NCBI GenBank assembly: GCA_963666215.2
Contig: CAXWPL010000005.1
Coordinates: forward strand, 864,001 to 928,000
DNA length: 64,000 nucleotides
Direction of reading: 5' to 3'
From: Acidobacteriota bacterium
Lineage (GTDB): Bacteria > Acidobacteriota > UBA890 > WLXD01
Shown here piece after piece: positions 17,742-64,000 of this stretch; the stretch's first letter is position 1; every line of letters begins with the position of its first letter. The notes under the pieces are model-generated. The model did no database searches and was not told the DNA's origin. It saw only the letters and a list, made by a program, of their open reading frames with translations. The position numbers were made by a program, and so were the translations under genes.

Positions 17742-19163
17742 CTAGTTGTCGATCGTCCGGCCACGCCCGAGTCGCTCGTGGGCCCCAGCCAGGTCCCGCG
17801 AGGTGAACGCGGCCATCAGCGAAAGCTCGCCGGCGAGTACCGCGGCGCCAAGAATCTCAGCCAGCCTGCGAACCGCGTACCCCGGCCGCTCGGGATCGGG
17901 GAGAGCGTTCATCAGCGCCAGCGCCTCGTGTTGTGTTGCGAGCCCGGTACCACCGCCGATCGCCGCAATCGGCACGTCGGGTAGAAAAACCGACACCATC
18001 ACGCTGTCACGATCGCCAGGCGCCCTCTCGATGCAGGTCACCCCCATCGACGCTTCCGCAACGTGAGCGAGATCTTGACCTGTGGCCAGGAAGAATGCCG
18101 CGATAACGTTGGCGAAATGCGCGTTGGCGCCGATCGCCCCGGCGGCGATCGAGCCCAGCAGGTTCTTGCGATACTGCACCTCTGCCAGCGCCGCGGCGTT
18201 GGTCTTGAGGCGCTCGAGGATCTCCTGATTCAGAACCACCTCGGCGTGCACACGTTTGCCCCGGCCTTCCTGGAAGTTGACCGCAGCGGGCTTCTTGTCG
18301 ACGCAGTAATTGCCCGAAAGCGCGACGCAATGCACATCGGTCTCGGGCTCGATGAGCCTATGGACGACGCGGTCGCAAGCGATCGTTGCCATGTTCATTC
18401 CCATGGCGTCGCCTGACTCGAAGCGGAACCGTAAGAACACGGTCGTTCCGAAGGCGTACGATCGGATGTCGAGCAATTTGAGGTGCCCACTCGTACTCTC
18501 CGCGACCTCGCGAATACGATCCTCCGACTCGGTCACCCACGCGATGAAGCGGCGGTTCTCGACGATACCTGTGGTTCTAAACACCGGAGCCCGAGTCATT
18601 CCCACTTCTTCGACTCGAACCGTCGCCCCGCCGGCCGCGCTGATCGCCGAACAGCCTCGATTGATGCTGGCCACCAACGCGCCCTCCGTGGTCGCCAGCG
18701 GCAAGTACACGTCCTCGTCGATGACGTGCTCTCCGAGCACTCTGAGCGGACCCGCAACTCCCATCGGCACCTGCGCCGCGCCGATGAAGTTCTCGCAGTG
18801 GCGGCTCGAGGCTAGCTCTGCGTCGAACGAGTAGTGGCTGATGTGGTCGAAGGAGATCTCGGCGTCCCGAGGCTCACTCGCGCCGGCGGTCCGGTTGGCG
18901 CTGGCGATGTGCCGCACTGCCCGCCGACGCGCTTCCGCCGCATCGGAAGCCGCGATCTCGCCGCCGAGTTGATGCAAACGCCGCTCGCCGGCGACGAGCT
19001 GCTCGACTATCGCATCCAGGCGACCGGCGGAATCCTGCTGCTCGAGCTCGGCGCCCTCATCACTCGAGTCGGCCGTTGATCGAGGGCCCGACTCGGAACA
19101 GTCGACTTCCGGGTCAATCTCCTCCGACGCCCCCGAGATCGACGCGGACACAGGTTCGCTCAT
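17742..19163 (-). CDS. hmgA: HMG-CoA reductase, class I (NADPH, archaeal/eukaryote type)
   Basis: CENFIG, PLATTEGALVAS, GDAMGMNM, SGNYCVDKKP, EGRGK, TGQD, LAGELSLMAA, AHERLGR. Confidence 0.95.
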   Translation of the reverse strand: MSEPVSASISGASEEIDPEVDCSESGPRSTADSSDEGAELEQQDSAGRLDAIVEQLVAGERRLHQLGGEIAASDAAEARRRAVRHIASANRTAGASEPRDAEISFDHISHYSFDAELASSRHCENFIGAAQVPMGVAGPLRVLGEHVIDEDVYLPLATTEGALVASINRGCSAISAAGGATVRVEEVGMTRAPVFRTTGIVENRRFIAWVTESEDRIREVAESTSGHLKLLDIRSYAFGTTVFLRFRFESGDAMGMNMATIACDRVVHRLIEPETDVHCVALSGNYCVDKKPAAVNFQEGRGKRVHAEVVLNQEILERLKTNAAALAEVQYRKNLLGSIAAGAIGANAHFANVIAAFFLATGQDLAHVAEASMGVTCIERAPGDRDSVMVSVFLPDVPIAAIGGGTGLATQHEALALMNALPDPERPGYAVRRLAEILGAAVLAGELSLMAAFTSRDLAGAHERLGRGRTIDN

Positions 19164-19166
19164 CGA

Positions 19167-20300
19167 TCAGATCCTCCGCCGCACCAGCGGCGTGCCTGCA
19201 AGTGACTCGAGGTCTGCCGCGCCAACGCAGAACATACAGATGCGCAGCTCGTGGAGTGTCCTGCGCATCGAGGCGACGACCGTGGCGGCCGATTCGGTGG
19301 CGCCTTGCAGGAACGGCCGCGCCAGCCCGACGATGTCGGCTCCCATCGCAATCGCCTTGCCTACGTCGAGGCCGTTGCGCACGCCACCACTGCCAATCGT
19401 GATCGTGTCGGGCAGCGCCGATACGGCGGCAATGCTGTCGGGTGTAGGCACGCCCCAGTCGGCGAACAGCTCGCCGAGCGCCGCATCGTCGGCCCGAGCG
19501 GCCTCGATTCGGGCCCAACTTGTCCCACCCAACCCAGCGGTGTCAATCACGCGGACTCCTGCGTCGAACAGCTGTCGAGCAACCGTCGGCGACATACCCA
19601 TGCCGATTTCCTTGACGATGACTGGCACCTCGAGCTCCTCGACAACCTTCGCGATCTTCGCCAGCAGATGCGAAAAATTGGTGTCGCCCTCGGGCTGAAT
19701 TGCCTCCTGCAGTGGGTTCAGGTGCAACACCAACGCGTCGGCGCCGATCATCTCCACGGCCTCACGACACTGCGCGACATCGTAGCCGTAATTGAGCTGC
19801 ACCGCTCCTAAATTGGCCAGCAACGGCACGCTGGGCGCCAAATGGCGCACCTGGAAGGTGGAGCGCGCCGACGCTGAGGGATCCTCGATCGCTTTCCGCT
19901 GTGAGCCCACGCCGATCGCGACACCGACCTCCTCCGCTGCGATCGCCAGGTTGCGATTGATCGCGGCCGCCTCGGGCGTACCCCCGGTCATGCAGGAAAC
20001 CAGCAGCGGCGCGTTGAGCTGCTGACTCAGAAACGATGTCGACAGATCGACCGCGGCCATGTCGAGCTCCGGCAGCGCGCGGTGCTCGAACGCGTAGTGG
20101 TCGAAGTAGCGCGCCCCGAGCTGCATGTGCTCGCGCAATGCCAGCTGGATATGCTCCGCCTTGCGATCACGCTGGCCGGCCGCGTCTTCGGAAAGAGCTT
20201 CGCTGGCGCGACCATCGCCGGAAGGACCCACGTCGGAGACGGAGTCGTCGATTAATGTGGTCGAGTCGGTGGGTTTCATGGCGTCAGGATAGGGGCACAT
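19167..20300 (-). CDS. fni: Type 2 isopentenyl-diphosphate isomerase
   Basis: RKAEHI, MTGG, GVGSQR, HLNPLQEAIQPEGDTNF, KEIGMG, GGTSWARIE, SGGVRNG. Confidence 0.95.
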   Translation of the reverse strand: MCPYPDAMKPTDSTTLIDDSVSDVGPSGDGRASEALSEDAAGQRDRKAEHIQLALREHMQLGARYFDHYAFEHRALPELDMAAVDLSTSFLSQQLNAPLLVSCMTGGTPEAAAINRNLAIAAEEVGVAIGVGSQRKAIEDPSASARSTFQVRHLAPSVPLLANLGAVQLNYGYDVAQCREAVEMIGADALVLHLNPLQEAIQPEGDTNFSHLLAKIAKVVEELEVPVIVKEIGMGMSPTVARQLFDAGVRVIDTAGLGGTSWARIEAARADDAALGELFADWGVPTPDSIAAVSALPDTITIGSGGVRNGLDVGKAIAMGADIVGLARPFLQGATESAATVVASMRRTLHELRICMFCVGAADLESLAGTPLVRRRI

Positions 20301-20309
20301 CCGTTGCTG

Positions 20310-21110
20310 TCAAACTTCGTCGCTCCCGGGACGGGTGCCGGCAATGAGCTCTTGGGCGAAGTTCGCCAGGCGCGTAGCGCTGCGGTTCATCCGGGTTCGC
20401 AGACGCAGCAGGGCTGCCACGGAACGCGGCCGCCAGATTGCCTTGCCCACCACCTTGCGCTGATCGATGCTGCCGTCCTGGCGCCGGCAGTCTTCGAGAA
20501 AAGACGGGAGGCTCTCGCCCGCCGTGTCGGTGATCGCTCGCACGATCAGGTACGGAAGCCCATACGCGGTCGCTACTCGCGCGAAACAGGCCGACTCCAT
20601 GTCTACCGCCGCGGGCTGATCGCGCTCGGTCTGCCCCCACCAATGCTGCTTGCCTTCCGGAGTTGCGACGATCTCGTCAACCGTCACCAGGCGACCGAGC
20701 TCGTAGGACTCGCCAGTAACGGCCACCTCCTCGAGCCACTGCAGATCGGGACGCGCCAGAACGTCGTTACCCTCGAGAACCTCACTCGATACGACCAACT
20801 CGCCAACCTTGAGCTTGCCGGATAGGGCTCCGGCAATCCCGAGCGCCAGCACGCGGCGCGGCGTGCACTTCTGGATGAGCTTGCGCAATCCGATATCGGC
20901 GTTGCGCTTGCCATCGCCGGTGACGCAGAGCACCACCGGGACGCCTTGGATGAGCCCTTGTGTGTAGCGTGCCGGGCCGTTCTTGATTTCCACTCGCTCG
21001 CGCACACGTTCGCGCAGGACGACGATCTCGTCCTCCATGGCCGTTACGACCGCAATCAGCTCGTCGCTCTCGGGCTCGCGGCCGCTGGGTCTGGTTGCCC
21101 TACTTGTCAT
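20310..21110 (-). CDS. hpnG: Nucleoside phosphorylase/MTA-SAH nucleosidase fold, HpnG-like
   Basis: AVVTAMEDE, TGDGKRNA, GIAGAL, AVDMESA, VRAITDTAGESLP; downstream of shc-hpnH-hpnA. Confidence 0.7.
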   Translation of the reverse strand: MTSRATRPSGREPESDELIAVVTAMEDEIVVLRERVRERVEIKNGPARYTQGLIQGVPVVLCVTGDGKRNADIGLRKLIQKCTPRRVLALGIAGALSGKLKVGELVVSSEVLEGNDVLARPDLQWLEEVAVTGESYELGRLVTVDEIVATPEGKQHWWGQTERDQPAAVDMESACFARVATAYGLPYLIVRAITDTAGESLPSFLEDCRRQDGSIDQRKVVGKAIWRPRSVAALLRLRTRMNRSATRLANFAQELIAGTRPGSDEV

Positions 21111-21181
21111 AACCGTGATCTCGAAACCACTGCACCGCGCGTTGGAGCGCAGCTTCGACCGGGCTCTGGGGGAGCCCTAGC

Positions 21182-22224
21182 TGTGTTTTCTAAGTAGGTT
21201 GTTCACATCGGGGCTCACTTCTGAGATCAATGGGGTTGTTCAAAAGACTCCACGACCTCAGAAGGAGTGCCCGATGCAGCTGCATGGTAACGCCCGCACG
21301 ACGCCGTATATACGCCGAGAGATGGTCCGCCGAGTCCGGGAGCGGGCGGAGCCCGTGACGGAAACGGCGGCGGCGCTCGGCGTGTCGGCTCGAACGGTTT
21401 ACAAGTGGCTGGATAGATACGAGCGAGAAGGTGAGGCCGGGCTGCTCGATCGATCAAGCCGGCCGACGTGCTGTCCGCACGCAACAAGCGCTGGAGTTGT
21501 GAGGCAGATCGACAAGCTACGTCGGCGGCGACTGACGGCCTGGCAGATCAGCCGAAGGTTGGCTGTGCCGCGCTCGACCGTCTCGGCGTGGCTGAAGCGG
21601 CTCGGACTCGCCAAGCTTGATGCGCTCGAGCCCAAGCCCGAGATCGTTCGCTACGAGTACGAGCACCCCGGTGACCTACTGCACCTGGATACGAAGAAAC
21701 TGGCCCGTATCCGGCGACCTGGACACCGCATCCACGGCGACCGCTCCAAGCGGGCCTACGGCGTCGGCTGGGAGAACGCCCACGTCGCTATCGACGATCA
21801 CTCTCGGGTGGCGTACGTCGAAGTGCTGCCCGCCGAAGACCAACACACCTGCACAGCGTTCCTGCAGCGAGCCGTCGAGCACTTCGCTTCGATGGGAGTA
21901 GCGGTGCGCCGAGTGATGACAGACAACGGGCCTGGCTACGTCTCGAAGCGCTTCAATCGCCTATGCCATCAACTCGAGATCCGGCACATTTACACCCGGC
22001 CCTACACCCCCAGAACCAACGGCAAAGCCGAACGCTTCATCCGCACACTCAAGGAGCAGTGGGCCTACGGCACCTGCTACCAGACCTCAGCTCGACGTAC
22101 TCGAGCTCTACGGCCCTGGCTCAACCACTACAATCGTCACCGTCCCCACGCCGGCATCGGCATGACACCGCCGATCGCTCGGCTCTCAGGGGTGAGTTCG
22201 TGAACAACCTACCTAGAACTCACA
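21182..22224 (+). mobile_element. IS481-family insertion sequence, 1043 bp
   Basis: Ends TGT...ACA; 25-bp terminal IRs match 22/25 (TGTGTTTTCTAAGTAGGTTGTTCAC vs TGTGAGTTCTAGGTAGGTTGTTCAC); direct repeat CCTAGC at 21176-21181 and 22225-22230. Confidence 0.96.
21274..22203 (+). CDS. IS481-family DDE transposase
   Basis: GAAGGAG RBS; HGNARTT, RYEYEHPGDLLHLDTKKL, IDDHSR, TDNG, RPYTPRTNGKAERF, YNRHRPH. Confidence 0.95.
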   Translation: MQLHGNARTTPYIRREMVRRVRERAEPVTETAAALGVSARTVYKWLDRYEREGEAGLLDRSSRPTCCPHATSAGVVRQIDKLRRRRLTAWQISRRLAVPRSTVSAWLKRLGLAKLDALEPKPEIVRYEYEHPGDLLHLDTKKLARIRRPGHRIHGDRSKRAYGVGWENAHVAIDDHSRVAYVEVLPAEDQHTCTAFLQRAVEHFASMGVAVRRVMTDNGPGYVSKRFNRLCHQLEIRHIYTRPYTPRTNGKAERFIRTLKEQWAYGTCYQTSARRTRALRPWLNHYNRHRPHAGIGMTPPIARLSGVSS

Positions 22225-22641
22225 CCTAGCTCCTCGATTGCCCGGCATGGATCGAAGTACATGCGATGGCGCGACATTCGAACCGCCTCAACGGTGACCC
22301 GCGGCTGGCGCCCGAGCAAGCGCGAGGCGCCCTCGTCGCAGCCGAAGGTCGAACGCGATCAAGGGTGCCGGAAACGGCATCGCCGCGCCGGTCAGGGTCT
22401 CCGGCAGCAGCCACCAGATCACCCTCGACGAGCCTCGCGCCCAAGCCTTCGATGTTGTCGCAGCGTGCTCCAGCCCGCACGAGGCAGCGCACCTCGTCAC
22501 CCCGACGATGCAGCGCTTCGGCAACGTGAGAGCCTATGAAACCGGTCGCACCGGTGACGAACGACACAGTCATCGAGCGTATTCAGATCGAGCGGACGGC
22601 TTAGAGAACGCGCCCCGAAGGCGCACCATCGCGGCTCGTGC

Positions 22642-23643
22642 TCAGCCCAGGAAGTTCCACTTGGCCATCCGCAACATGTCGCGAGGGCTCTTGACGAGCT
22701 CCTTGACGACGGAGGCTTCGAAGCCCGAGTGCATGGCGCAGTTCTGGCACCTTCGGTCCTGCCGCGACTCCCAATACTCCCAATCGACCCCCTCCCAGAA
22801 CTCCTCCCAGGTGTCGAAGTACTTCTCGCCAATCAAGTAGCACGGTCCCTTCCAGCCGAGTGGCGTATAGGTAACAGTGCTCCAGGGTGAGCACGAGTAG
22901 TCGCGCATCCCGGCGGCGAACTCGAGAAACATCGGCGTAGAGTTGAGCCGGTATTCCTCTGCGAACTCGAGCACGGGCTTGAACTTGGCCTCGATGTCCC
23001 GGCGAGTCAGGAAGATGTCGCGATCGATCTGCTCGTAGTGGTACCCAGGCGAGATCAGCATGCCGTCGACGCCGAGCGCGGTCATCTGCGAGCACAGCTG
23101 CTCCACCTCGTCGATGTCGGTTTCCTTGAACACCGTCGTGTTGGTGAACACGTGATAGCCGCGCTCGATGCAGGCCTCCACCATCTCCACCGCGGTGTCG
23201 AACACGCCCTCGCGGTCGGTGACGTAGTCGTGGGTCTCGCGCATCCCGTCGAGGTGAACGTTGATCGTCAATCGCTTGTCCGGTGGGACGCAATCGAAGA
23301 GCCTCTTTTCGATCAGCAACGCGTTGGTGCACAGGTAGATATGCTTGCCGCGCTCGATAATTCCCTCGACGAGCTCGGGCAGCTCGGGGTACATGAGCGG
23401 CTCACCACCGCAAATCGAGACAATGGGAGCCTCCGCGGCATCGACGGCGGCCAGACAGCTCTTCAAGGAAAGCCTGTCGACGAGCTTGCCCGTGTGGCGC
23501 TCCGGCGTGCAGCCGATACAGGCCAAGTTGCAGGCGTAGAGAGGCTCGAGCATCAAGACGAACGGATAACGCTCGCGCCCGGCACGTGCATTCCGCCACT
23601 GATGCTTGATGTTGTCGGTGGTGATGTGCAGCGGAAATCGCAT
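22642..23643 (-). CDS. hpnH: Adenosyl-hopene transferase, radical SAM
   Basis: YPFVLMLEPLYACNLACIGC, SICGGEPL, CSPW, PCYL, RCQNCAMHSGFE; starts 10 bp after the shc stop. Confidence 0.93.
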   Translation of the reverse strand: MRFPLHITTDNIKHQWRNARAGRERYPFVLMLEPLYACNLACIGCTPERHTGKLVDRLSLKSCLAAVDAAEAPIVSICGGEPLMYPELPELVEGIIERGKHIYLCTNALLIEKRLFDCVPPDKRLTINVHLDGMRETHDYVTDREGVFDTAVEMVEACIERGYHVFTNTTVFKETDIDEVEQLCSQMTALGVDGMLISPGYHYEQIDRDIFLTRRDIEAKFKPVLEFAEEYRLNSTPMFLEFAAGMRDYSCSPWSTVTYTPLGWKGPCYLIGEKYFDTWEEFWEGVDWEYWESRQDRRCQNCAMHSGFEASVVKELVKSPRDMLRMAKWNFLG

Positions 23644-23652
23644 CGTCGGGCC

Positions 23653-25638
23653 CTAGCCGCGGCCGTCGGTGAGGGCTCGATAAACGCCGAGGGCTTCGAG
23701 AGGGAAATAGGTCGCGTACAAATGGTAGCGCAGGTAGAAAACCTTGGGGAATCCGGTGCCGGTCCAGTACTCGTCGCGCCAGGTGCCGTCCTGCCGCTGC
23801 GTGCGCAGCAGGTGGTCCACTCCGCGGCGCACCGCGTTGGATTCGACGTCCCCCACCCGCAGCAGGCCCAGCAGCCCCCAGGCCGTCTGCGACGCGGTGC
23901 TGTGACCGCGGCCTTTGCTCTCCGGGTCGACGTATGAACCGTACGTCTCGCCCCAGCCGCCGTCGTCGTTCTGGCGTGAGCGAATCCACGCGGTCGCCCG
24001 CTGCACCGCAGGAGCCGACGGGCTCTCGCCCGCCGCGCTGAGAGCCCGCAGCGCCAGCCAGGTCCCGTACAGGTAGTTGCAGCCCCAGCGTCCGTACCAC
24101 GAGCCATCCGGCTCCTGGGTACGCCGGATGAATTCGAGCCCGCGCCGGACGGGCTCGTCGGAGCGATCGAAGCCGTAGCGATGCAGCGCGATCAGCGTGC
24201 GCGACGTGATGTCTGCCGTGCTTGGATCGATCATCGCGTTGTGGTCGGCAAAGGGCACGTAGGTAAGGATTTCCTTGTCGCATCCCTTGTCGAAAGCAGC
24301 CCAGCCGCCGTCGCGGTTCTGCATCGACAGCTGCCATCGCAACGCCCGTTCGATCGCGCCTTTGCGACGGGCTTCCAGCTCCGGCTCATCGAACCTGATG
24401 TGGCTGAGGCACATCAGCGCCTCGGCGGTATCGTCGCAGTCGGGATAGAACTCGTTGGCATACTCGAAGTACCAGCCGCCGGGCTCGACGTGAGGCAACT
24501 TCACTTGCCAATCGCCCGCCTGCTTGACTTCCCTGTCGAGAACCCAGCGCGCTGCCCGCTGCATCGGCGCCGAACCCGGCTCGGTGCCCGCATCGAGCAG
24601 GGCGTTCATTGTCAGCACCGTGTCCCACACCGGCGAGAAGCACGGCTGCAGCCGCAACGTATCGCCCTCCTCGATCTCCAGCTTCTCGAGCTCCTCGAGC
24701 TGCTTGAGAATCAGCGGCTCGTCAACCCTGTGGCCGAGACTATGGAAAGCGTAGATGCAGTTGACAATGGGCGGGAAGATCGCACCGAGGCCGTCGCTGC
24801 TCTCGAGGCGCTCGAGAATCCACTCCTCGGCACGCTCCAATGCACGCTCGCGCAACGGCGTCAGCGACATGCCCTCGGCCATCTTCAGCGAACGATCCAA
24901 CGCGAAGAACAGGCGCCGCCAAATGCGCGCTGTATGCGTGTTGTGCGGCGCCACCGGCAGCCGGGAGCCTTCGACGAGCAGCTCCGGAATATGGGCGTAT
25001 GCCGGAATGTCGCAGAACGGCTTGCGCGCCCAGATGATGCTCAGCGGCACGACGATGGCTCGCGACCACGAGGACATCTCGTAGACGTTGAAATAGAACC
25101 AATTGGGCAGAAGGATGATCTCGGGTGGTACCGCGGGGCAGCGGTCCCAGGGGTACTGGCCGAAGATCGCCAGATAGATCTTCGTGAAGGAGTTGCACGC
25201 CTCGATTCCACCGAGCCGCAGAATCACGCCGCGCGCCGCACGCATGTGGGGCGCGTCGGGATCGTCGCCGAGGAGCTTGAGCACGAGGTAGTTCTTGACC
25301 GAGGCGCTGATTTCGGGCGGGCCGCCCGGGTAGATGGCCCAACCTCCGCCGCTCGGTCCGCCAAGCTGCTTGGCACGGATCGTGTTCCCGGCCTTGCGAG
25401 CCTTCTCGCAGTCGTGGCGGCCGACAAAGTGCATCAGCAGGATGTAATCCGATTCGAGGATCGAATCGCCCTCGAGCTCGGCGCACCAGTGTCCATCTTC
25501 CTACTGAATCGACAGCAGAAAATCTCGCGCGCCGTCGATCACCTGGTCGGCCGTTCGGCCAGCGCTGCTGGCGGCCTCCGGCACCCGCACCAGAGGCACC
25601 CCCGGTGCAGACACAGGTCCCTCGGGCAACTGAGTCAT
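23653..25638 (-). pseudogene. shc: Squalene-hopene cyclase with in-frame TAG at codon 46
   Basis: One frame from ATG 25638: MTQLPE...DFLLSIQ*EDGHWCAELEGDS...; catalytic DCDDTA; QW repeats (QNRDGGW, QEPDGSW, QNDDGGW, QRQDGTW); GTGFPKVFYLRYHLY. Confidence 0.92.
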
Positions 25639-53908: not shown

Positions 53909-54259
53909 CGAAGCCAACGCGCGGCACGGGGTTGCGGCCTGACTCGAGCTCCTGGCCCCGGTTACCGCATCTCCAGTTGCCTCGCCAGAGGTCGGCTGAC
54001 GCCGCGATTCAGCTTTTGTTCAGCGAGCTTTCAGCGATTCGTCGGGCCGCTCTCAGGACTCCTTCGTCGCGCGCGGCAACGATCTCCTGCATGCGGAAGA
54101 CAGTCCATGGGTCCCAAACAAGCACACCCGGTCGGTTGGCGACGCCAGCGTACGGGACCACGCGTTCTTGTTCAACGGGATCTTCACAGCACACGTGGCG
54201 ACCCTCGCCGTCTTCCACCCGCGTTGACTCAGGGTCGTCCCAAGCGCAGGAGAAGCGTT

Positions 54260-55633
54260 ATGTCTCGCAACACTTTGTTTCGCGTCTTGTCTTTGGTCAT
54301 GCTCGTAGCCGCGGCGCCGCCGGCGGCCAACGCCGCACAGGAGCCCTCGAACACACTCGCCACGACCGTCAGCACTGGGGAGCTGGAGGAGGGCGACACG
54401 GTCCTGCTGACCGAGGCTCGGCCCGACGGCTCCTCCTCTGAAAGGAAAGAGGCGCGATTTCTACGCTATGCGAGCGGCAACCTCTTCGTCCTGGTGGACG
54501 AGCAAACCGTCGAGGTACCTGAGGCACGCATTCTGCGGGTCAAAAAGAAGTACAACGACCCGCTCACCAACTCCCTGCTCATCGGTGCCGGGATCATCGG
54601 CGCTGGGTACGTGCTCGGAGCCATCGATGACGCCGGCTGCACCGGCTTGTGCTTCGGCCCCGGATTCACCCTGGTCTTGACCGTGCCCGTGGCGCTGCTC
54701 GCGGTGATCAGCGACCTGGTGCACCGCGGCGAGAAGACCGTGTTCGTGGCCATGTTCGGTCTGTTCGCGGCGTTCGGTTGGCTGCTGCTCGGCGGCCTCG
54801 GTGGAGTGCTTTGGCTCGGTTCGATCGGCCTGCTTTCTGCCGCCCTGGGGGCGCGAGCGTCTCCTCATCTGCTCCTCCGTGCGTACCGGGCCGAGCCGAT
54901 AGCGCCGGCTAGAGCGCCTGGTCTGTTCCGTATTCTCGAGACGCTCGCCGAGCGCGCCGGTCTGCCGGGTGCGCCGCGTCCGTACTACGTCCCGAGCAAC
55001 ATGATCAACGCGTTCGCGGTCGGGTCACGCAGCAACTCCGCAATCGGTATCACCGACGGCCTGTTGCGCGGCTTGCAGCCGCGCGAGATGCAGGCGGTCC
55101 TGGCGCACGAGATCGCGCATGTTGCGAACAACGACGCCTGGGTGCTCGGTCTGGCCGACGTCTTTACTCGTATGGTCAACGTGTTGTCGCGGGTCGGGCA
55201 GCTCATGCTCCTCATCCAGCTGCCGGCCATCCTGCTCGGCAGGCGGCCTCCGTTCTCCTTCGAGCTCTTGTTGCTCATGATCCTGGCGCCGGCGATGAGC
55301 GCGCTGCTGCAGCTGGCGCTGTCGCGCACGCGCGAGTTCGACGCCGACCTCGGCGGTGCCCGACTGACGGGCGATCCCCGCGGGCTTGCAACGGCGCTGC
55401 ACCGCATGGACCAGATGCAAGGCGGCCTCTTCGAGCACCTGCTTCGACCGGGCCGCAACGTCCCCGACCCGTCGCTGCTGCGCACGCATCCACCGACTGC
55501 GGAGCGCGTGCGTCGTCTGCTCGCAATCGAGCAGGAGCTGAAACCCCTCGCCCCTCCGGTGGCGCAGATCGCGCAACTGCGATCGCGGCCACAGGAGCGG
55601 CCGCGCTGGCGCTGGTGGGGGAACTGGTACTGA
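54260..55633 (+). CDS. Hypothetical exported domain fused to HtpX-like M48 zinc protease (possible deletion chimera)
   Basis: AGGAG RBS before ATG 54260; signal peptide; C-part NAFAVG, VLAHEIAH, SRTREFDAD, THPPTAER. Confidence 0.75.
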   Translation: MSRNTLFRVLSLVMLVAAAPPAANAAQEPSNTLATTVSTGELEEGDTVLLTEARPDGSSSERKEARFLRYASGNLFVLVDEQTVEVPEARILRVKKKYNDPLTNSLLIGAGIIGAGYVLGAIDDAGCTGLCFGPGFTLVLTVPVALLAVISDLVHRGEKTVFVAMFGLFAAFGWLLLGGLGGVLWLGSIGLLSAALGARASPHLLLRAYRAEPIAPARAPGLFRILETLAERAGLPGAPRPYYVPSNMINAFAVGSRSNSAIGITDGLLRGLQPREMQAVLAHEIAHVANNDAWVLGLADVFTRMVNVLSRVGQLMLLIQLPAILLGRRPPFSFELLLLMILAPAMSALLQLALSRTREFDADLGGARLTGDPRGLATALHRMDQMQGGLFEHLLRPGRNVPDPSLLRTHPPTAERVRRLLAIEQELKPLAPPVAQIAQLRSRPQERPRWRWWGNWY

Positions 55634-55834: not shown

Positions 55835-58687
55835 CTAGTGAGCCGCCGAGGCCGCCTGCCCGGCAAGGCGCTCGAAGCTCTCGGCGGTGGCCGCCGACCA
55901 GCCGCCAATCACCTGCATCACACGGCCCGTGTCGTCGAGCAGTACCGACAGCGGAACGCTGATCCGGCCGCCGACGTACAGATCGGCGACGGCCTGGTCT
56001 TGGCTGACATAAATCGGGTACCGCGCACCGATCTGTTCGACGTAGCCGGCCACGGCGCCGAGTGTCTGGGTATCTATGCTGACGCCGACCAGATCAATGC
56101 CCTGTGCGTCGAAGCTGGACTGCAGACCTTGCAACTCGGGCATCTCGAGTCGGCAGGGCACACACCACGTGGCCCAAAGGTTCACCAGCAGCCGCCGGCC
56201 CGGAGACAACAGCTGACGAAGCGACGCCGGGTCGGGCCCGGCGAGCTTCGCGCCATCCGGGATCTGCTCCTTCGTGAGCATCTGAAGGTCGGGGAACACC
56301 TCGCCAGGCCGGAAAGTCAGGCTGGTCAACAACCGCTCTTCGCTTGAGAGCGGGTCCACCAGCGAGAACCGGCTCTCTGCCACCAGCGAGTTGCGGCCAC
56401 CCTCGGTGATCTCGAGCGTCGTTCCCGCCGGAATCCCCGACCGCCACGACCCTGGCAACCGCGACACGCGCTGCTGGGCGCCGCTCGGCCAGGCAACCTC
56501 TATCCACTCCGCCCCCGAGCTGTCGCCAAGACCGAACAGCAACCGCGGATCGTTCTGCGCCAGGAAGCCCGACCCCGCCGATTTCACCGCGGTCTGAATC
56601 CCAGCCGCCGTCTTGACGCGCACCACGGCACCGAAGGCGTCGAGGCCGCTGGCGGCGCCAATCAGGCGAACGCGCACGAAGCCGCGATCGCTGCCAACGT
56701 TGTTGCGGAACAGCTCGTGCCCGTCGCGCTGCAGCGAGACCAGCACGATGTCGGTGTCGCCGTCGTTGTCGAAATCGGCGAAGGCGGCTCCACGCCCGTC
56801 GCCGATTGAATCGAGGCCCGACACGCCGGAGATGTCGATGAGGCGTTCGCCTCGATCGCTCATCCCGAGGTAGTCGCGCTCATAGCCGCTGAACGACATG
56901 CCTTCCTTGAAGATCGCCGCCATGTGATTGTCGGCGTACTCGGCGTTGCCCGCCTCCTCGATTTCTGCCTGGGCAGCCACAACGTGGCGCCAGAAGGTGC
57001 TTCACGTGTCGTCCATCGTCTTGCCCGAGATGAAGCCATTGGGCGTGTAGACGTCCTGCCATCCGTCGTTGTCGAAATCGAAGAAGCCGCCGCCCCAAGC
57101 CCAGCCGGCCGATATGCCGCCGAGATCTTGTGTGGCGTCGGTGAAGCCGCCCTCGCCGTCGCCGCGGTAAATCGAGTTGCCCGAGGCGAGCTTCTTGAGG
57201 AGCTCCGTGTCGGAGGTCGCACCGGGCAACAGGCGGCTGAGGATCCGGTTGCCGGCGGTCGACGACATGTTGGAGACGTGCAGGTCGAGGCTGCCGTCGT
57301 TGTCGAAGTCGCCAAATGACACGCCCATCCCGTTGCCCGGGTCGAGCACGCCACGCTCGGCCGCCACGTCCCGAAAACGGCCGCCCTCGTTGAGGTACAG
57401 GCCGTTCTCGCCGAAATCGTTGGCCACGTACAGGTCCTGGTCGGCATCACCGTCGATGTCGGCGAACGCCGCAGCATAGCTCCAGCGGCCGTCGCGCACT
57501 CCCCACTCGGAGCCAGCCTCCCGAAACCGCAGGTCTCCCTGGTTGATGAACAGCAGGTTCGGGGTGCCGTTGGTCGCTTGGTGCCAGGAGTTGGGCATCA
57601 CCAGGCCGTAGCGATTGTAGGAGGCCACGTAGACATCGCCGAGCCCGTCGCTATTGACATCGGCAACGGCAACGCTGAAGCCAACCGCGTCGCGATCGAC
57701 ACCGGCGCGCAGCGACACATCAAAAAACCGCAGCGCGCCGTCTGGAATCAAACGGTTCTCGAGAAACATCTGACCACCGACCGAGGCCATGAACAGGTCC
57801 TGGTCACCGTCGTTGTCGGCATCGAAGAAAACGGCGCCGGTCGCCGGCGGAGTGAATCCGAGCAGTGACGACTCCGAGACGTCGACGAAGCCACCGTCGC
57901 CGTCGTTCAAGTACAGGACGTTGCGCTCGACACCCGTGGTCAGGAGGTCGACAAGCCCGTCGTTGTCGACGTCGGCAACAGCAGGACCGTGGGCGATGAC
58001 CGTGTCGTTAGGCGCTGTCCCGAAGTTGGGGAAATGGGTGCCGACGCCCGCGGGTAGGGCGACCTCGTCGAACAGGTCGCGCTCGGCCAGCGTCGAGCGC
58101 ATCGATTCGATGTCAACACGCTCGATCTGCCAGCGGCCCTCCCCCACTCCGCGGGCGGTCATTCGCAGCCATGCCACCATCCATTCGCGTCGGCCCCTTC
58201 CATCCCGGCCAACGATCTTGAACTCGACCCGAGCGGTCCCCAGCTCGTTGTCACCAGGCTCGAACATCGACTCCTTCACCTTGAAGCGCGCATCTTCAAT
58301 GGTGCCGAAGTGAGCCAGGATCGCGCCGAAACGATCGAGAAAGTCGTCACGACCTAGCGCCACCGCGGTCGGCTCGAGTGTCCAGTCGTGGCTCCAGAGC
58401 CAGTCGCGCTGTTGCTCCGGCTCCGCTGGCGCGCCTGGCAGCATCGGACTGACGATGGTATCGGCCCAATGCGACGCGATACGGGCCGCGTCGCGATCCC
58501 GTGTGGCCACCGACAACTCGAGCAGATCGTTAGCGAGCGACTCCGAGAGGTTCTCTAGCCTCTCGAGCGCAGCGCGATCGAGGTCTTGTGACGCGCTCGC
58601 TCCGATGAGCGTCGTCAGCGCCAGAAACGCACCGAGAGCAGCCGCTGGTCGTCGTAGCAATGGGTACCCCAAGCGAGCCCGACTCAT
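55835..58687 (-). CDS. Secreted FG-GAP (CRTAC1-like) + ASPIC/UnbV + TlpA protein with in-frame TGA at codon 562 (candidate Sec)
   Basis: ORFs 57002-58861 and 55835-56980 share one frame: GKTMDDT-TGA-STFWRHVVAAQ; six DxDxDG repeats before the TGA and a seventh after it; LLFGLG..VAWPSG; NLWATWCVPC. Confidence 0.8.
56972..56991 (-). promoter_or_regulatory. Bacterial SECIS-like hairpin 3' of the in-frame UGA
   Basis: mRNA UGA-AGCACCUUCU-GGCGCCAC-GUU-GUGGC-U-GCC; apical loop starts GU, with 18 nt between UGA and loop; one bulged U. Confidence 0.6.
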
Positions 58688-58862: not shown

Positions 58863-59567
58863 CTACGCCTTGCTCCGCGTCGCGACAGGATGAGTCAAGG
58901 CGTAACGCCCGTCGGTGTTGTCTGTTTCTTCCTCCCATCGGCTGTTGATCTCGTCGAACTCGACGAGCGCAATCGATAACTCGCTGGCGATCCAGCCGAG
59001 AGTCCAGTCGAAGCTCGCCAGGCCGCAGCGATCGGCGCGTGCCGCCAGCACGTCCCAGTAGCGTGACTCGCCGCGGCGCCGATCCGGATGCCGCAGGGCA
59101 GGCTCGTCCAGAAGGCCGGACTCGAGGATGCGCCGGACGCTCCCGCGGGTGATGCCAAGGCCACCGCCTTGGATCGAAACCTCGGGCATCCGACCCTGCA
59201 GCGTCCCGAAGATCGACTCTCCGGCAGGCAGGCGATGAAAACGTCGCTGCACCACGCTGTCGGGGTCGATCTTCACCAGATAGTCGGTCGGGCGTTCTTC
59301 GAACAGCACGAGCATGCGCTTCACGGCAGCGCCGCCATGCTCAACGGGCAGAAGGCGATCCTCGAGGTGGAGCTCCACACCGAAGCGGTCGGGGAAGGTC
59401 GACAGGAGGGGGTCGCGGTCGCCATCTGAGCGCACGATCACGCGGGCGTCCGGGTAGCAGGCTCGCAGCTCGCCCAAACAGCGCACCGCCTGCCGGGCGT
59501 CGCGGTGGACCGCCATGAACCAGCACAGATCTTGGTCCACGTAGGAGCGGGTCACGGTCGGACTCAC
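58863..59567 (-). CDS. Hypothetical protein, glycosyltransferase-like
   Basis: VRSDGD, YLVKIDPDS (DxD-like), IQGGGLGIT. Confidence 0.5.
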   Translation of the reverse strand: MSPTVTRSYVDQDLCWFMAVHRDARQAVRCLGELRACYPDARVIVRSDGDRDPLLSTFPDRFGVELHLEDRLLPVEHGGAAVKRMLVLFEERPTDYLVKIDPDSVVQRRFHRLPAGESIFGTLQGRMPEVSIQGGGLGITRGSVRRILESGLLDEPALRHPDRRRGESRYWDVLAARADRCGLASFDWTLGWIASELSIALVEFDEINSRWEEETDNTDGRYALTHPVATRSKA

Positions 59568-59724
59568 GGGCGAGAGGGAGGCATCGACGGCGAGCTGTGG
59601 CGTTACCGACGAGCACCTATCCTGCCAGTGTGCGCCTGGTGTCGCCTACTCTCGTGGCGCCCAAAAGGGCACGATCGCCGTCAAGAAGGGTGTGAACACC
59701 CCCCGTTAACGCTTTCCGCGCGGT

Positions 59725-60722
59725 TCAACTTCCTGCCGTTCGCCGACAACGAAGCTCAACAGGGCATCGAGATCGAAGACAAGCCGGCGCCCGACGGCAC
59801 CTACCGCATGGCTCATCTACGCGCCGTCGACGACGGGTTTTTCCGCACGCTCGGCATCCAGATGCTGGCCGGCAGGCCGCTCGAGCGCGCCGATATGCTG
59901 CCCGGCGTCCCACCGCCGGGCTCCACGGCCCCGGGCGCGGTGGGGGATAGCGCGGTCGCCGCGTCCTCACGGGGGCCGGTCGAGAGCGACCCGGTGAGCG
60001 TGGCCGTGGTCAATCAAACGCTGGCCGAGCGCTACTGGCCCAACGGCGACGCCATCGGCGCACGCTTCCGGGCCGGCGGCGACACGCTGTACCGCGTCGT
60101 CGGGATCGCCCCGGTCCTCAAGTGGCACGGCTTCGACGAGGAGCCGGTGGCCCGCTTCTACATCCCCTACACCGACGATCCGTCGCCACGCGCGGTTTCC
60201 TGCTGCACACCGAGGGCGACCCGCTAGCGCTCGCTCAGAGCGTGCGCCAAGCCGTCCAGCAGCTGGAACCCGACCAGTCCGTCTACGACATCCAGACGAT
60301 GTCGCAACGGCTGCACACGTCGGTGGCGGCCACCCGATTCTCGCTGATGACGCTGATGTCATTCGCGGCGCTCGCCCTGGCGCTCGCCGTGGTCGGAACG
60401 TACGCGGTTTTCTCCTGGCTCGTCAGCCGTCGTTCGGCCGAGATCGGCATCCGCATGGCACTCGGCGCCCGAGCCAGTCAGGTGCAGCGCCTGATGCTCG
60501 GGCAAACCGTTTTCCTTGCTGCGCTCGGCGCCGGGCTCGCCATCTTGGGGTCGCGCCTACTCGCGGGCGTGGTCCTCGAGCTACCTGTTCGAGGTAACTC
60601 CGGGCAACCCGCTCGTGCTCGCGTCGGTAACCGGCCTGCTCGTTGGCGCTGCAGTGCTGGCCACCTGGGCGCCGGCACGCCGCGCGGCGAGTATCGAGCC
60701 GGCCATCGCGCTACGCGACTGA
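59725..60722 (+). pseudogene. ADOP/MacB permease C-terminal remnant with two frameshifts
   Basis: GFFRTLGI..AGR, VVNQTLAERYWP, EIGIRMALGA, PARRAASIEP spread over three frames; N-terminal portion absent. Confidence 0.8.
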
Positions 60723-60827
60723 CGGCGGCCGAGTCGGGAGCGTGCTGGTTGGCGGTCGCAATCGAGCGCCGCCCGGCCCACGACACTTCCCCCACGGGCC
60801 GCTGACGTCGTCGCCAGCGGTCTCGGG

Positions 60828-61568
60828 CTACGACAGAAGCTTCTCGCGTTGTTCCATGCGTCGCAGCCCGAGGAAGGCGAACAGGCAACCAATCGCGAAG
60901 ATCCCCAGGCGATTGAGCAGCACGCGCTCGAGCCAGTAGGGGTTGTTGGTGCCGAGCGGCGGCCTGAACGGGTCGAGGAACAACCAGAAGCTCGTCTCCG
61001 CCAGGAGCTCCGCGCTCAGCAGCACCACGAACAACGACGCCGAGGCAAGCATCGCCGCGGTGTTGGCGCCGCGCACGTACACCGAGTACATGAAGGTCAG
61101 GTTGGCGACGAGGAAGGCGGGCAGGAAAGCGTTCAGCGCCACGCGTACGAAGGGGAACTCGGCGAAGAAGAAGTAGCCTACCGTACTGATCACCAGAAGG
61201 GTGGCGACAAGCACGGCGTAGAGCGCCAGCAGGCGCACCATCCAAATCGCGTAGTGCGCGCTCGCGGTGCCGAAGAGGGTTTCGAGAGTCTGATGGTCGC
61301 GCTCCCTGGCGAGCAGATCCATCGTCAGGTAAATCGCCAGCACGGTGCCAGGGATCTCGACCAGGATGATGCGCGCGTCACTGGCGTTGAATCCCTCGCT
61401 GGGATCGTAGACGACGATGGCGTAGAGAATCGCGTAGTAGATCAGCAGACCTATCGACATGAACAAGGGCTTGCGCCGGAAAGAGATACGGAAGCTCAGC
61501 CGCGCCAGACGCCAGGTGCTCCGCAGCACCTCGCCCCAGCTCAGCAGCCTGGCCTCTGTGGTGCTCAC
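60828..61568 (-). CDS. ABC-2-type permease-like membrane protein
   Basis: About six TM helices; ERDHQTLETLF loop; start overlaps the ATPase-fusion stop. Confidence 0.7.
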   Translation of the reverse strand: MSTTEARLLSWGEVLRSTWRLARLSFRISFRRKPLFMSIGLLIYYAILYAIVVYDPSEGFNASDARIILVEIPGTVLAIYLTMDLLARERDHQTLETLFGTASAHYAIWMVRLLALYAVLVATLLVISTVGYFFFAEFPFVRVALNAFLPAFLVANLTFMYSVYVRGANTAAMLASASLFVVLLSAELLAETSFWLFLDPFRPPLGTNNPYWLERVLLNRLGIFAIGCLFAFLGLRRMEQREKLLS

Positions 61569-64000
61569 GCCGGGCTCCGTTCGCTCTCGAGCAGGTAGAT
61601 GTAGGCGTCCTCGAGCGTCGGCTCGACGTGTTGCGCCTCGACACCCTCCACCTGCGTGGCGCGGGCACTCAGGAAGCGGGCGCGAATACCGTCGGGCGTC
61701 CGCAGCTGGGTGACTACCTTGGCGTTCGTATCGCCCGAGAGCGCGTCGAGACGCTCCTCATCGACGATCGCCTCCCAAACCACTCCAGCCGCCCTCTCTC
61801 TCATTTCTTCGGGGCTGCCGATGTAAAGGATCTTGCCGCGATCGAGCACCGCCAGGCGATTGCAGCTGCCGGCGACGTCCTCGACGATGTGTGTCGAGAA
61901 GATGACGATGCGCTCCTTGCTCAGACTCGCCAACAGGTTGCGAAAGCGGATGCGCTCGACCGGGTCGAGCCCCGCCGTGGGCTCGTCGACGACGACGACC
62001 TGCGGCGTGTGCAGCAAGGTCTGCGCGATCCCGACGCGCTGCCGCATGCCGCCCGAGAACGAGCCGATCACGTCCTCCTGGCGATCTGCCAGATGCACCT
62101 GCTCCAGACACCACTGCACGCGCTCGCGCCGCTCCTCGTCGCCGCGAAAGCCCTCGAGCAGGGCGCGGTACTCGAGGTACTCACACGCGGTCATGTGGTC
62201 GTAGAGGCCGAAGCGTTGCGGCAGGTAGCCGATGACACCGTGAAGACTGCCAAAATCGGCGACCCGCTTGCCGTTGAGCAGCACCGAACCATGCGTGGGT
62301 TCGAGCACCTGACAGACGATGCGCATGAGCGTTGTCTTGCCGGCGCCGTTGGGTCCCAGGAGGCCGAACATACCGCGGCCGATCTCGAGGCTGACTCCGG
62401 CGAGAGCGGCGAACGGGGGCCGCCGTACACCGATGATGGGCACCCGGCCGGCCGCCGCGTAGCTGCGTCGGCGTAACCAGCGTAGCGGCCGCGGCCCACC
62501 CTCGATCTTGTCCGGATTGACCTTGCCGCTACGCACCCTGGCGGCGAGCCAGCGAACAGCCCCCACCGCCAGCCAGATAACAGCGGTGGCGATGGTGACG
62601 GAAGTCAGTCCAACACGCGAGTGGATGTAGGCGAACACGACACCTGCGACAACGACGCGCCCCAGAGCCCGCAGACGCACCGCACCGGGCGGCACCAGCG
62701 CCCCAACAGCACCCGCCATGTTGAGCACCAGGCCCCAGGTCAGCAGGCTGAGAAGATAGACCCAGACAGGATCCTCGAGATAGCTGTGCAGGAACACGAC
62801 GAGCCCCAGGAACAACGACTTGAACACCAACCCCTGGCGAATCTCAGCCGCCGCGACGGGTTCCAGCCCCGCAGCGCGGCGCAGCTCCATGCCGCGCTCG
62901 AAGCGCCCCCATTCGCGGCGGAAGCGGCCCGGCGCGCCATAAAGCTTGGTCAGAGTACGTAGCCTTATGGAGAGGATGGGCTCGTTACGCAGATCTGCAG
63001 CAACGCGCATCCCACGCACGCGCAGCGTCAGCCAGACGAGCGTGAGACAGGCGAACCACAGTGGCAGCACGAGCAGCGAGGTCCAGAACACGCTCTCGTA
63101 GCGGGCATCGAAAACGTAGACCAGCGCCGCGGTAGCGAGCGTCGCCGTGCCGATCCCCAGCCAGCCGATACCACGCAGCCACTCTTTGACCTGGTCGATT
63201 CCCAAGTAGGCCACGGGGATGAAGATCAGCGTCGAGACAGTCGAAACGGCCAGCCCGCCGAGGATCGTGATGGCGAACGGCGGCCACACCTCGTAGTCGA
63301 CGCCCCTTTCGAGCGCCAGCGGCAAAACACCCAGAAGCGTCGTGGCCGAGGTCATCAGCACCGGTCGCACCCGCGAGCGCCCAGCAGCGACCACAGCGCG
63401 CTCACGCCCGAAGCCGCGCGTGCGCAATCTCGAAATCGCATCAATGAGGATGATGCCGTTGTTGACCGCGATCCCGATGAGCACGACGAGGCCGAGCATC
63501 GCCATCGGCGCCGCCTGTGAGGTGAGCCCCGTTCCCGAGAGGAGGAGCGCGAGAATGGCCCCGATCGCCGCGGGTGGCAGCGTGGCGAAGACGACGATCG
63601 GCGAAGAGAACGACTCGAACAGCGCCGCCAGAATCATGTACACGAGGATCGCCGCAACCCCCATCATCCAGTAGTAGACCGTATCTACCACGGCCTCGAT
63701 GACCTCGATCGTGTAGCCAGTCGGCAGTGCCAAGCCCTGGATAACGGATCGCGTCAACTGCCGGGCGGAGTCGAGTCGCGGCTGCGAGCCGGTAACCTCC
63801 TCGAGGAACGCGTAGCTGACAATCACCCGCCGTGCCTGGTTCGTGCGCAAGATCGAGCGACGCCCCTCGTCGATGCGCAGACGCGCCAGCTCCCCCATCG
63901 CCGTCGCGCTGCCAGCGGAGTTCAACACCGGCAGCTGCGACAGATCGGCGAGACGCAGACCTCTGTTGGCGGAGCTACCGGGGCCGCCAACCTCGCCGCC
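61565..64000 (-). CDS. AcrB-type RND domain fused to ABC ATPase (5' end outside window)
   Basis: LAALFES, GIAVNNGIILID, RVRPVLMT, then GPNGAGKTT, GYLPQ, FSGGMRQR, VVVVDEP, STH; frame open to the window edge. Confidence 0.88.
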   Translation of the reverse strand, partial: GGEVGGPGSSANRGLRLADLSQLPVLNSAGSATAMGELARLRIDEGRRSILRTNQARRVIVSYAFLEEVTGSQPRLDSARQLTRSVIQGLALPTGYTIEVIEAVVDTVYYWMMGVAAILVYMILAALFESFSSPIVVFATLPPAAIGAILALLLSGTGLTSQAAPMAMLGLVVLIGIAVNNGIILIDAISRLRTRGFGRERAVVAAGRSRVRPVLMTSATTLLGVLPLALERGVDYEVWPPFAITILGGLAVSTVSTLIFIPVAYLGIDQVKEWLRGIGWLGIGTATLATAALVYVFDARYESVFWTSLLVLPLWFACLTLVWLTLRVRGMRVAADLRNEPILSIRLRTLTKLYGAPGRFRREWGRFERGMELRRAAGLEPVAAAEIRQGLVFKSLFLGLVVFLHSYLEDPVWVYLLSLLTWGLVLNMAGAVGALVPPGAVRLRALGRVVVAGVVFAYIHSRVGLTSVTIATAVIWLAVGAVRWLAARVRSGKVNPDKIEGGPRPLRWLRRRSYAAAGRVPIIGVRRPPFAALAGVSLEIGRGMFGLLGPNGAGKTTLMRIVCQVLEPTHGSVLLNGKRVADFGSLHGVIGYLPQRFGLYDHMTACEYLEYRALLEGFRGDEERRERVQWCLEQVHLADRQEDVIGSFSGGMRQRVGIAQTLLHTPQVVVVDEPTAGLDPVERIRFRNLLASLSKERIVIFSTHIVEDVAGSCNRLAVLDRGKILYIGSPEEMRERAAGVVWEAIVDEERLDALSGDTNAKVVTQLRTPDGIRARFLSARATQVEGVEAQHVEPTLEDAYIYLLESERSPA

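Follow-up and report, generated by a model that had tools for sequence, protein, structure and literature searches.

A propeller–thioredoxin gene and its in-frame UGA

The window analysed here, a 64,000-nucleotide stretch of contig CAXWPL010000005.1 from an Acidobacteriota bacterium (assembly GCA_963666215.2), holds on its minus strand two apparent genes that together make up a single frame of 950 codons, broken only by one in-frame TGA at codon 562 (context ...NGFISGKTMDDT*STFWRHVV...). On comparative grounds, this UGA is almost certainly decoded as selenocysteine (Sec), and therefore the two apparent genes very probably represent one gene for one exported selenoprotein of 950 residues. An earlier reading of this DNA, made from the letters alone (hereafter the sequence-only reading), had proposed the uninterrupted frame with its sole break at the TGA, and had placed a DxDxDG repeat, the UnbV domain, and a WCVPC domain beyond it. 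The same frame and context were found on the minus strand, and Pfam searches on the read-through translation agree with this domain order.

The product begins with a probable signal peptide (Table 1), preceded by an AGGA that can be read in the sequence 8 nt 5' of the ATG. Alignments of the orthologues start at about residue 15–30, short hydrophobic N-termini also open these orthologues, and the AlphaFold model holds a low-confidence N-terminal helix at residues 15–27. TlpA-type domains work outside the cytoplasm, and the signal-peptide-like N-terminus, together with the C-terminal domain of this type, makes export of the protein probable. The N-terminal alpha+beta domain that follows has no Pfam family at E<=0.01, and an NTF2-like fold, proposed from the strand pattern and from the name that one source gives to homologue P0029, is only a guess. 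The FG-GAP propeller is recognized in five stretches by FG-GAP_3 (PF13517; 4.3e-36, 123.7 bits, over the cut-off), its Asp columns are invariant in the alignment, and in the model it is interrupted by the two-helix insert that bears the UGA-encoded residue. One DxDxDG blade (residues 638–646), the UnbV_ASPIC domain, and the thioredoxin domain all lie 3' of the TGA.

The thioredoxin-fold domain scores over the cut-offs of PF00578 (48.4 bits) and PF08534 (46.9 bits), and its matches in the PDB are TlpA (1jfu, 3.8e-15) and ResA (4nmu, 2.1e-14), the same two families that Foldseek returns. As it remains far below the NCBIfam equivalog cut-offs for TlpA (68.5 vs 230) and ResA (66.3 vs 170), the domain is, by its scores, a relative of TlpA/ResA and not an equivalog. 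The two cysteines of its redox motif, Cys842 and Cys845, are the only ones in the 950-residue protein besides the proposed Sec.

Table 1. Positions in the window of the candidate selenoprotein gene and its features
Feature	Positions	Strand	Basis or details
Whole selenoprotein gene	55835..58687	minus	950 codons; ATG 58685-58687; TAG 55835-55837
Probable signal peptide, residues 1 to ~33	58589..58687	minus	MSRARLGYPLLRRPAAALGAFLALTTLIGASAS; read from sequence
N-terminal alpha+beta domain, residues ~38-201	58085..58576	minus	model secondary structure
FG-GAP beta-propeller with DxDxDG calcium-type loops, residues ~205-660	56708..58075	minus	Pfam FG-GAP_3
UGA codon 562, very likely read as Sec	57002..57004	minus	first residue of helix 562-573
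SECIS-like hairpin	56972..56991	minus	GGCGCCAC-GUU-GUGGC(U)GCC; 8 bp, one bulged U, 3-nt loop
UnbV_ASPIC domain, residues 684-745	56453..56638	minus	PF07593, 2.5e-15, 56.5 bits vs cut-off 23.4
TlpA/ResA-like thioredoxin-fold domain, residues 807-926	55910..56269	minus	Pfam AhpC-TSA and Redoxin
CVPC redox motif, Cys842 and Cys845	56153..56164	minus	WCVPC at residues 841-845

Conservation and decoding of the UGA codon

Across the family, 63 homologous loci that carry a TGA were examined. In every one of them the codon falls in the same alignment column, at whole-protein identities from 27 to 100%, and the frame downstream of it is open and homologous. These loci comprise 27 found among L014–L123, the full set of 16 orthologues L124–L139, and the full set of 20 members of a distant subfamily (L160–L179); two of them (L049 and L051) come from metagenome-assembled genomes (MAGs) titled Verrucomicrobiota, and another (L042) is a paralogue in the window's own genome. 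Among 61 relatives searched, the 16 genome matches at E<=1.7e-213 all carry the in-frame TGA. In a sample of 401 genomes from the host's phylum, 122 gave a match at E<=1e-40, and of the 46 matches that reach E<=1e-160, 44 have the in-frame TGA, the two exceptions being an N-terminal fragment at a contig end, which stops before the column, and a protein from G387 with Ser in the column and without the thioredoxin domain. The TGA form occurs in 59 genomes among the matches listed. These counts include the unpublished genomes G047, G071, and G166, of which G071 is one of the 59, while the 28 non-Sec controls used below include L033 (from G047); no conclusion hangs on them. Judged from these alignments, the TGA is conserved far more strictly than chance would allow.

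This recurrence bears directly on the reading of the TGA as a nonsense lesion or an assembly error in a decaying gene, which drew on the suspicion in the sequence-only reading that the window has other lesions, and on the MacB/ABC pieces at 59.5–64 kb, which lie in different frames. The same TGA is found in 63 loci down to 27% identity and in four assemblies, the domains downstream of it are intact, and confidence in the structural model stays high where the two parts join. In four public runs, each from a different study and one or more of them possibly the source of the assembly, a single contig spans the entire gene; the contigs differ from the window at 0, 0, 0, and 7 positions, all outside 57002–57004, and the TGA stands unchanged in these assemblies. 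No RNA data set is listed among the 24 runs. By all of these sequence comparisons, both a lesion and an assembly error are already refuted, as far as sequence data allow.

The trace of the TGA can also be seen in protein databases. A search with residues 380–780 as the query gave 7706 hits at E<=0.001, and among the best 120 of them, 62 are shorter than 660 residues. All but one of these 62 stop exactly at ...NGF[IV]SGxxMxDT, including the window's own product, and this shared ending of 61 proteins is the signature of a conserved UGA that has been called as a stop. The same 61 endings at ...DT could be claimed, together with the split made by the gene callers and the separate open reading frame (ORF) 55835..56980, for a true stop in a conserved split gene, whose products of 561 residues and about 381 residues (from GTG 56978–56980) would assemble with each other. 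Such an arrangement is very improbable, given that the frame is shared by both parts, with zero spacing between them, in 63 of 63 loci, that the break would cut the propeller between blades, inside a compact insert, and that the hairpin stem contains the first in-frame start codon 3' of the UGA, with no purine-rich ribosome-binding site seen before this codon. Moreover, neither TAA nor TAG ever takes the place of the TGA, and the genomes that carry the TGA have Sec machinery.

Decoding of the UGA as Sec is consistent with the gene content of the window's genome, where the search for sel genes suggested by the sequence-only reading found selA, selB (over the curated cut-off), selD, and a tRNA-Sec of 98 nt with anticodon TCA, the only tRNA with this anticodon in the genome. 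The selD gene (L009, G000:C2:219892-220839) holds one in-frame TGA of its own, and the selenophosphate synthetase is therefore probably a selenoprotein too. Among the 59 TGA-form genomes listed, 55 hold selA (E<=1e-30; 301 of the 401 genomes overall), and the remaining four (G023, G101, G236, and G317) have no good selA match and have selB over the cut-off in each case.

A standard amino acid at the UGA (Trp, Cys, Arg, or Gly), inserted by near-cognate decoding or under a changed code, would also keep the frame open, and the hairpin described below could stimulate read-through of this kind. However, the sole tRNA with anticodon TCA is the tRNA-Sec, the carriers of the TGA have selA or selB, and no homologue has Trp at the column, save for the doubtful alignment of L038. 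In addition, TGA ends ordinary genes of the window, as at 19167–19169 and 20310–20312, where it lies between unrelated domains, and it closes a phosphorylase-like and an FMN-dehydrogenase-like gene of the window, each just 5' of an unrelated gene; it is likewise the terminal stop of several orthologues of the selenoprotein gene (L022, L023, L028, L031, and others). Insertion of a standard amino acid is accordingly regarded as highly unlikely, and a changed genetic code was rejected, TGA being an ordinary stop both in the window and for the orthologues.

Further copies and neighbourhoods of the gene were seen along the way. The same genome encodes a paralogue (L042, G000:C1:764402-769141, with the match at C1:765902-767641) of 39% identity by tblastn, whose TGA falls in the same column (...DVDT*PTLWRSVV) and whose thioredoxin domain contains ATWCIACQ; an equal-scoring copy at G000:C4:467171-468910 may be a repeat or an assembly overlap. 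In the relative G001 (L018, G001:C1:1152222-1158005), the orthologue (C1:1153722-1156505) is followed after about 0.7 kb by selA (C1:1157200-1158285), and in G007 (C9) selA follows after about 4 kb, while selA and the selenoprotein gene are on different contigs in the window's genome.

The hairpin downstream of the UGA

Bacterial selenoprotein genes with a selenocysteine insertion sequence (SECIS) inside the ORF, of which E. coli fdhF is the archetype, resemble this gene in the in-frame UGA, the hairpin just downstream of it, the small loop starting with GU, the spacing of 18 nt, and the accompanying selA, selB, selC, and selD. The stem-loop that the sequence-only reading had noticed directly 3' of the UGA was recovered at 56972–56991. 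It begins 10 nt past the UGA, places its GUU loop 18 nt past it, and reaches −10.9 kcal/mol when folded alone, with 8 bp, one bulged U, and a 3-nt loop that opens with GU. The bacterial SECIS (bSECIS) model, as given in the main text of a 2026 selenoprotein catalogue (PMC13188914), has an apical loop of 3–9 nt, a stem of 4–16 bp, G in the first two loop positions, a distance of 16–37 nt from the UGA, and a minimum free energy of <=−7.5 kcal/mol; the hairpin falls within all of these limits, and it covaries among the Sec forms. Rfam gave only a chance match, to cow-rumen-1 (E 7.6), on positions 56800–57200.

Comparison among homologues is more informative than the single copy. A model-conform hairpin with its loop 16–21 nt past the codon is present in 50 of 62 Sec forms (L027, which contains N, being excluded) and in 3 of 28 non-Sec homologues. 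When the codons were replaced by synonymous ones, the median fraction of recodings that fold as well was 0.077 for the Sec forms, with 23 of 62 at <=0.05, and 0.335 for the non-Sec forms, with 2 of 28 at <=0.05. Across 25 Sec loci, the stem is 81.5% paired, and its pair 33-43 appears as C-G in 17 loci, G-U in 3, U-A in 2, and A-U in 1, G-C being seen as well in the WRQVVP forms. The covariation score over these loci is 0.158, compared with 0.078 in shuffles, and none of 500 shuffles reaches it, figures that relatedness of the loci inflates. The covariation links the wobble base of an Arg codon to the first base of a codon four positions further along: the Arg codon is CGU in all five forms with Thr (ACG) at the latter (L044, L045, L135, L137, and L139), CGG or CGA in the forms with Ser (UCG), and CGG in those with Pro (CCG). 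In L032, a hairpin of unrelated sequence takes up the same position.

Several observations weigh against the assignment of this element as a SECIS. The fold of 48 nt in the window has z = −0.48 against dinucleotide shuffles, of which 61 in 200 fold as well, and so do 40% of the synonymous recodings of the window's copy (the bulge not being modelled); the window's own hairpin, taken alone, is not exceptional and is no evidence by itself. Furthermore, the stem follows in part from the conserved peptide W-R-H/Q-V-V-A when this is encoded by GC-rich codons, a similar hairpin is present in the non-Sec homologues L054, L146, and L157, 9 of the 62 Sec forms miss −7.5 kcal/mol in a bulge-free scan, and L179 shows no hairpin.

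The Sec site, its possible redox relay and related systems

The AlphaFold2 model, obtained from a 42-row alignment, has a predicted local distance difference test (pLDDT) of 92.6 and a predicted template modelling (pTM) score of 0.90, and its top fold match is murine CRTAC1 (9etn_A; Foldseek E 1.2e-30, template modelling score 0.73 on the target). Residue 562 opens helix 562–573, one of two helices inserted between propeller strands. The sequence-only reading had assigned the Sec to a propeller loop; its location within the propeller stands, while the model puts it at the start of a helix in a two-helix insert rather than in a plain loop. Thioredoxin-type active-site cysteines sit at the same helix-start position, and a selenolate at a helix N-terminus, as modelled here, would be stabilised. 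No further conserved cluster of Cys or His is seen near the Sec, and, outside the CVPC motif, the mature protein has no other Cys.

Homologues without Sec mostly have Ser, Gly, Asn, Asp, Glu, or Ala at this column rather than Cys. These six are typical helix N-cap residues. Cys is found only in P0007, P0012, P0048, and L034 (codon TGT), and the comparison at this column that the sequence-only reading had proposed, in search of TGA or Cys, thus returned TGA in 63 of 63 loci and Cys in a few. Among 18 full-length non-Sec database proteins, the column holds Ser in five, Cys in three, Ala, Leu, and Arg in two each, and Val, Glu, Asp, and Gln in one each. The rarity of Cys runs contrary to the usual Sec/Cys pattern, and has to be counted against the Sec assignment.

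The Sec is accompanied by the redox motif of the C-terminal domain with high regularity. The motif [WYF]CxxC is intact in 59 of 62 Sec forms, that is, in all Sec forms with a thioredoxin domain, and the three that lack the domain (L175, L176, and L178) read U-R-C or U-T-C. On the other hand, only one of the 11 non-Sec forms whose domain can be aligned across the motif has CxxC (L145), the other ten having lost the first Cys and reading AxxC, SxxC, or AxxS. A FastTree phylogeny of 86 rows, from which L030, L033, and L064 (poorly aligned) and L039 (too short) were left out, and which was rooted at the midpoint for drawing only, groups most of the non-Sec forms into one clade of 20 nested among Sec forms, with L145 just outside. 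This nesting fits a history in which Sec was lost first and the CxxC motif decayed afterwards. At least five changes of state are needed to explain the presence of Sec on the tree, four of them forced by well-supported branches.

Some details of these groups are worth recording. The three Sec forms without the thioredoxin domain (L175, L176 from G392:C1, and L178 from G112:C1) have about 215–225 residues after the UGA, as though the local resolving Cys of U-x-C stood in for the fused domain. The clade of 20 non-Sec homologues (L143–L159, L048, L050, L054, and L055) has Ser, Gly, Asn, Ala, Asp, Glu, or Gln at the column and takes in MAGs titled Bryobacterales, Acidobacteriales, and Gammaproteobacteria; many of its members retain a thioredoxin-like domain whose first Cys is gone (AxxC, SxxC), and no selA was seen in several of its genomes (G117, G181, and G217).

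A redox relay between the Sec and the CxxC domain of the same chain, as put forward by the sequence-only reading, gains from the co-occurrence of both features (59 of 62 vs 1 of 11) and is somewhat favoured by these comparisons, although it stays an inference. Two sets of data speak against it. Five non-Sec database proteins have CxxC, with Ser (P0002), Val (P0003), Leu (P0004), Ala (P0022), or Gln (P0026) at the column, and the association between Sec and CxxC amounts to two independent contrasts when only the well-supported branches are considered, or to three with all branches, a number too small for it to reach significance.

The same data give room to a different function, in which the Sec is real but serves as a ligand of a metal or cofactor, or in another role outside a relay, and the TlpA-like domain attends to a different partner, in the way that TlpA acts on copper-site proteins. 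The five non-Sec proteins that keep CxxC indicate that the domain can persist without Sec, few independent events lie behind the association, and the PDB relatives of the domain include mixed disulfides of TlpA with ScoI and with cytochrome oxidase subunit II (4txo and 4txv). However, the presence of CxxC in 59 of 62 Sec forms, with the redox-type motif U-x-C in the other three, the loss of the first Cys in 10 of the 11 non-Sec forms with an alignable domain, and the lack of any other conserved Cys/His cluster seen near the Sec make a role of this sort rather unlikely.

The favoured explanation as a whole runs as follows. The ribosome very probably reads UGA562 as Sec, with the hairpin 10 nt downstream acting as a bacterial SECIS for SelB with Sec-tRNA(Sec), and the tRNA-Sec being charged through SelD and SelA. 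The product has a probable signal peptide, an alpha+beta domain, a CRTAC1-like propeller with UnbV/ASPIC, and a C-terminal TlpA/ResA-like thioredoxin domain. Under the relay, the Sec at the N-terminus of its helix would be a redox-active nucleophile that attacks an extracytoplasmic substrate. It would then be re-reduced, via a selenenylsulfide, by the fused CxxC domain, and a membrane electron carrier of the DsbD/CcdA type would recharge the CxxC domain. A DsbD_TM (DsbD/CcdA-type) membrane protein is present in the window's genome. Taken together, these elements lead to a broader proposal, tentative as a whole, of an uncatalogued, phylum-wide family of secreted propeller selenoenzymes. In these, Sec would have arisen at a helix N-cap position not occupied by Cys in the wider family, the SECIS would have been recruited from self-complementary codons of the already conserved W-R-H/Q-V-V-A (UGGCGCCA...UGGCG), Sec and its own CxxC would form a self-recycling selenol catalyst, and the loss of Sec would lead to decay of CxxC rather than to takeover by Cys.

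The protein combines features of several known groups. Like CRTAC1/ASPIC-UnbV proteins, exemplified by murine CRTAC1 (PDB 9etn), it has an FG-GAP propeller with DxDxDG loops followed by UnbV_ASPIC, and its close full-length homologues are named "CRTAC1 family protein" at NCBI; it differs from CRTAC1 in the Sec at the start of the helix insert, the extra N-terminal domain, the fused thioredoxin domain, and the absence of an EGF-like part. To our knowledge, no function has been described for the bacterial CRTAC1/ASPIC-UnbV members. With the TlpA/ResA/DsbE oxidoreductases it shares the thioredoxin fold, the W-C-x-x-C motif, and export, and a DsbD/CcdA-type carrier, on which those proteins depend, is present here, but in this case the fold is the C-terminal domain of a 950-residue protein. 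In Neisseria PilB (Trx-MsrA-MsrB), an enzyme is fused to its own thioredoxin-like reductant. The likeness to PilB concerns the would-be working only, that is, an exported catalytic domain and a TlpA-like domain thought to recycle it in one chain; the catalytic domain is unrelated, and PilB has no Sec. Compared with known selenoproteins with a SECIS inside the ORF, the Sec here is not part of a thioredoxin fold or a metal centre, and the non-Sec homologues mostly have Ser, Gly, or Asn instead of Cys. Selenoproteins with a TlpA-like domain (NF041054) share this domain, with a score here of 49.5 against a cut-off of 300; in them, Sec takes the place of the first Cys in the thioredoxin motif, whereas here the motif reads CVPC, with the Sec 280 residues upstream and in a different domain.

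The sequence-only reading did not know this architecture as characterised, and the catalogue, NCBIfam, and the literature searched offered no match to it. The family is absent from the 119 prokaryotic families and subfamilies in Table 1 of the 2026 catalogue (PMC13188914), where no FG-GAP, UnbV, or CRTAC1 architecture appears, and, by term search, from the main texts of PMC13188914, PMC12013277, PMC13326102, PMC2398784, PMC9312934, and PMC5029168, whose supplementary tables may list it under another name. No NCBIfam model covers the Sec region, the only matches being sub-threshold ones to the thioredoxin domain, and a literature search found no paper on a propeller–thioredoxin selenoprotein family. 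This selenoprotein family, widespread in bacteria, is therefore apparently uncatalogued. The databases call its gene as two proteins, one of the truncated hits being named "VCBS repeat-containing protein", and thus the whole family is misannotated across the phylum. Search methods based on Sec/Cys pairs would tend to miss it, owing to the rarity of Cys at the Sec column. If the assignment is true, it would bring a large, exported selenoprotein, whose catalytic scaffold is not a thioredoxin, into a catalogue dominated by small thioredoxin-fold proteins (PMC13188914). The bacterial CRTAC1/ASPIC-UnbV proteins would gain a testable redox site, and the hairpin would offer a clean case for how a SECIS can arise from the codons of a conserved peptide.

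Neither an operon partner nor a substrate can be deduced from the genes nearby, which encode an M48 peptidase, an OmpR-C/TPR regulator, an amidase, and MacB/ABC pieces. The M48 family peptidase gene (54107–55633, plus strand) lies at the 3' end of the selenoprotein gene, in convergent orientation. Eight further in-frame stops of the window were dropped as Sec candidates, four of them being boundaries between neighbouring genes and four lying in frames without a Pfam match, and the other nonsense lesions that the sequence-only reading had suspected in the window were not upheld for these eight. At 17745–25500 (minus strand), an isoprenoid/hopanoid row comprises phosphorylase-like, FMN-dependent dehydrogenase-like (possibly IDI-2), HMG-CoA reductase, squalene-hopene cyclase, and radical SAM/DUF3463 genes, several of which lie in the same frame, with the single stops between them as ordinary gene boundaries. 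Beyond the selenoprotein gene, MacB-like permease pieces occupy different frames of the plus strand (59505–60227, 60122–60805, and 60849–61598), and in a minus-strand ORF (61565–63928) a C-terminal part of AcrB is fused to an ABC ATPase; the pieces at 59505–64000 could represent frameshifts or misjoined frames.

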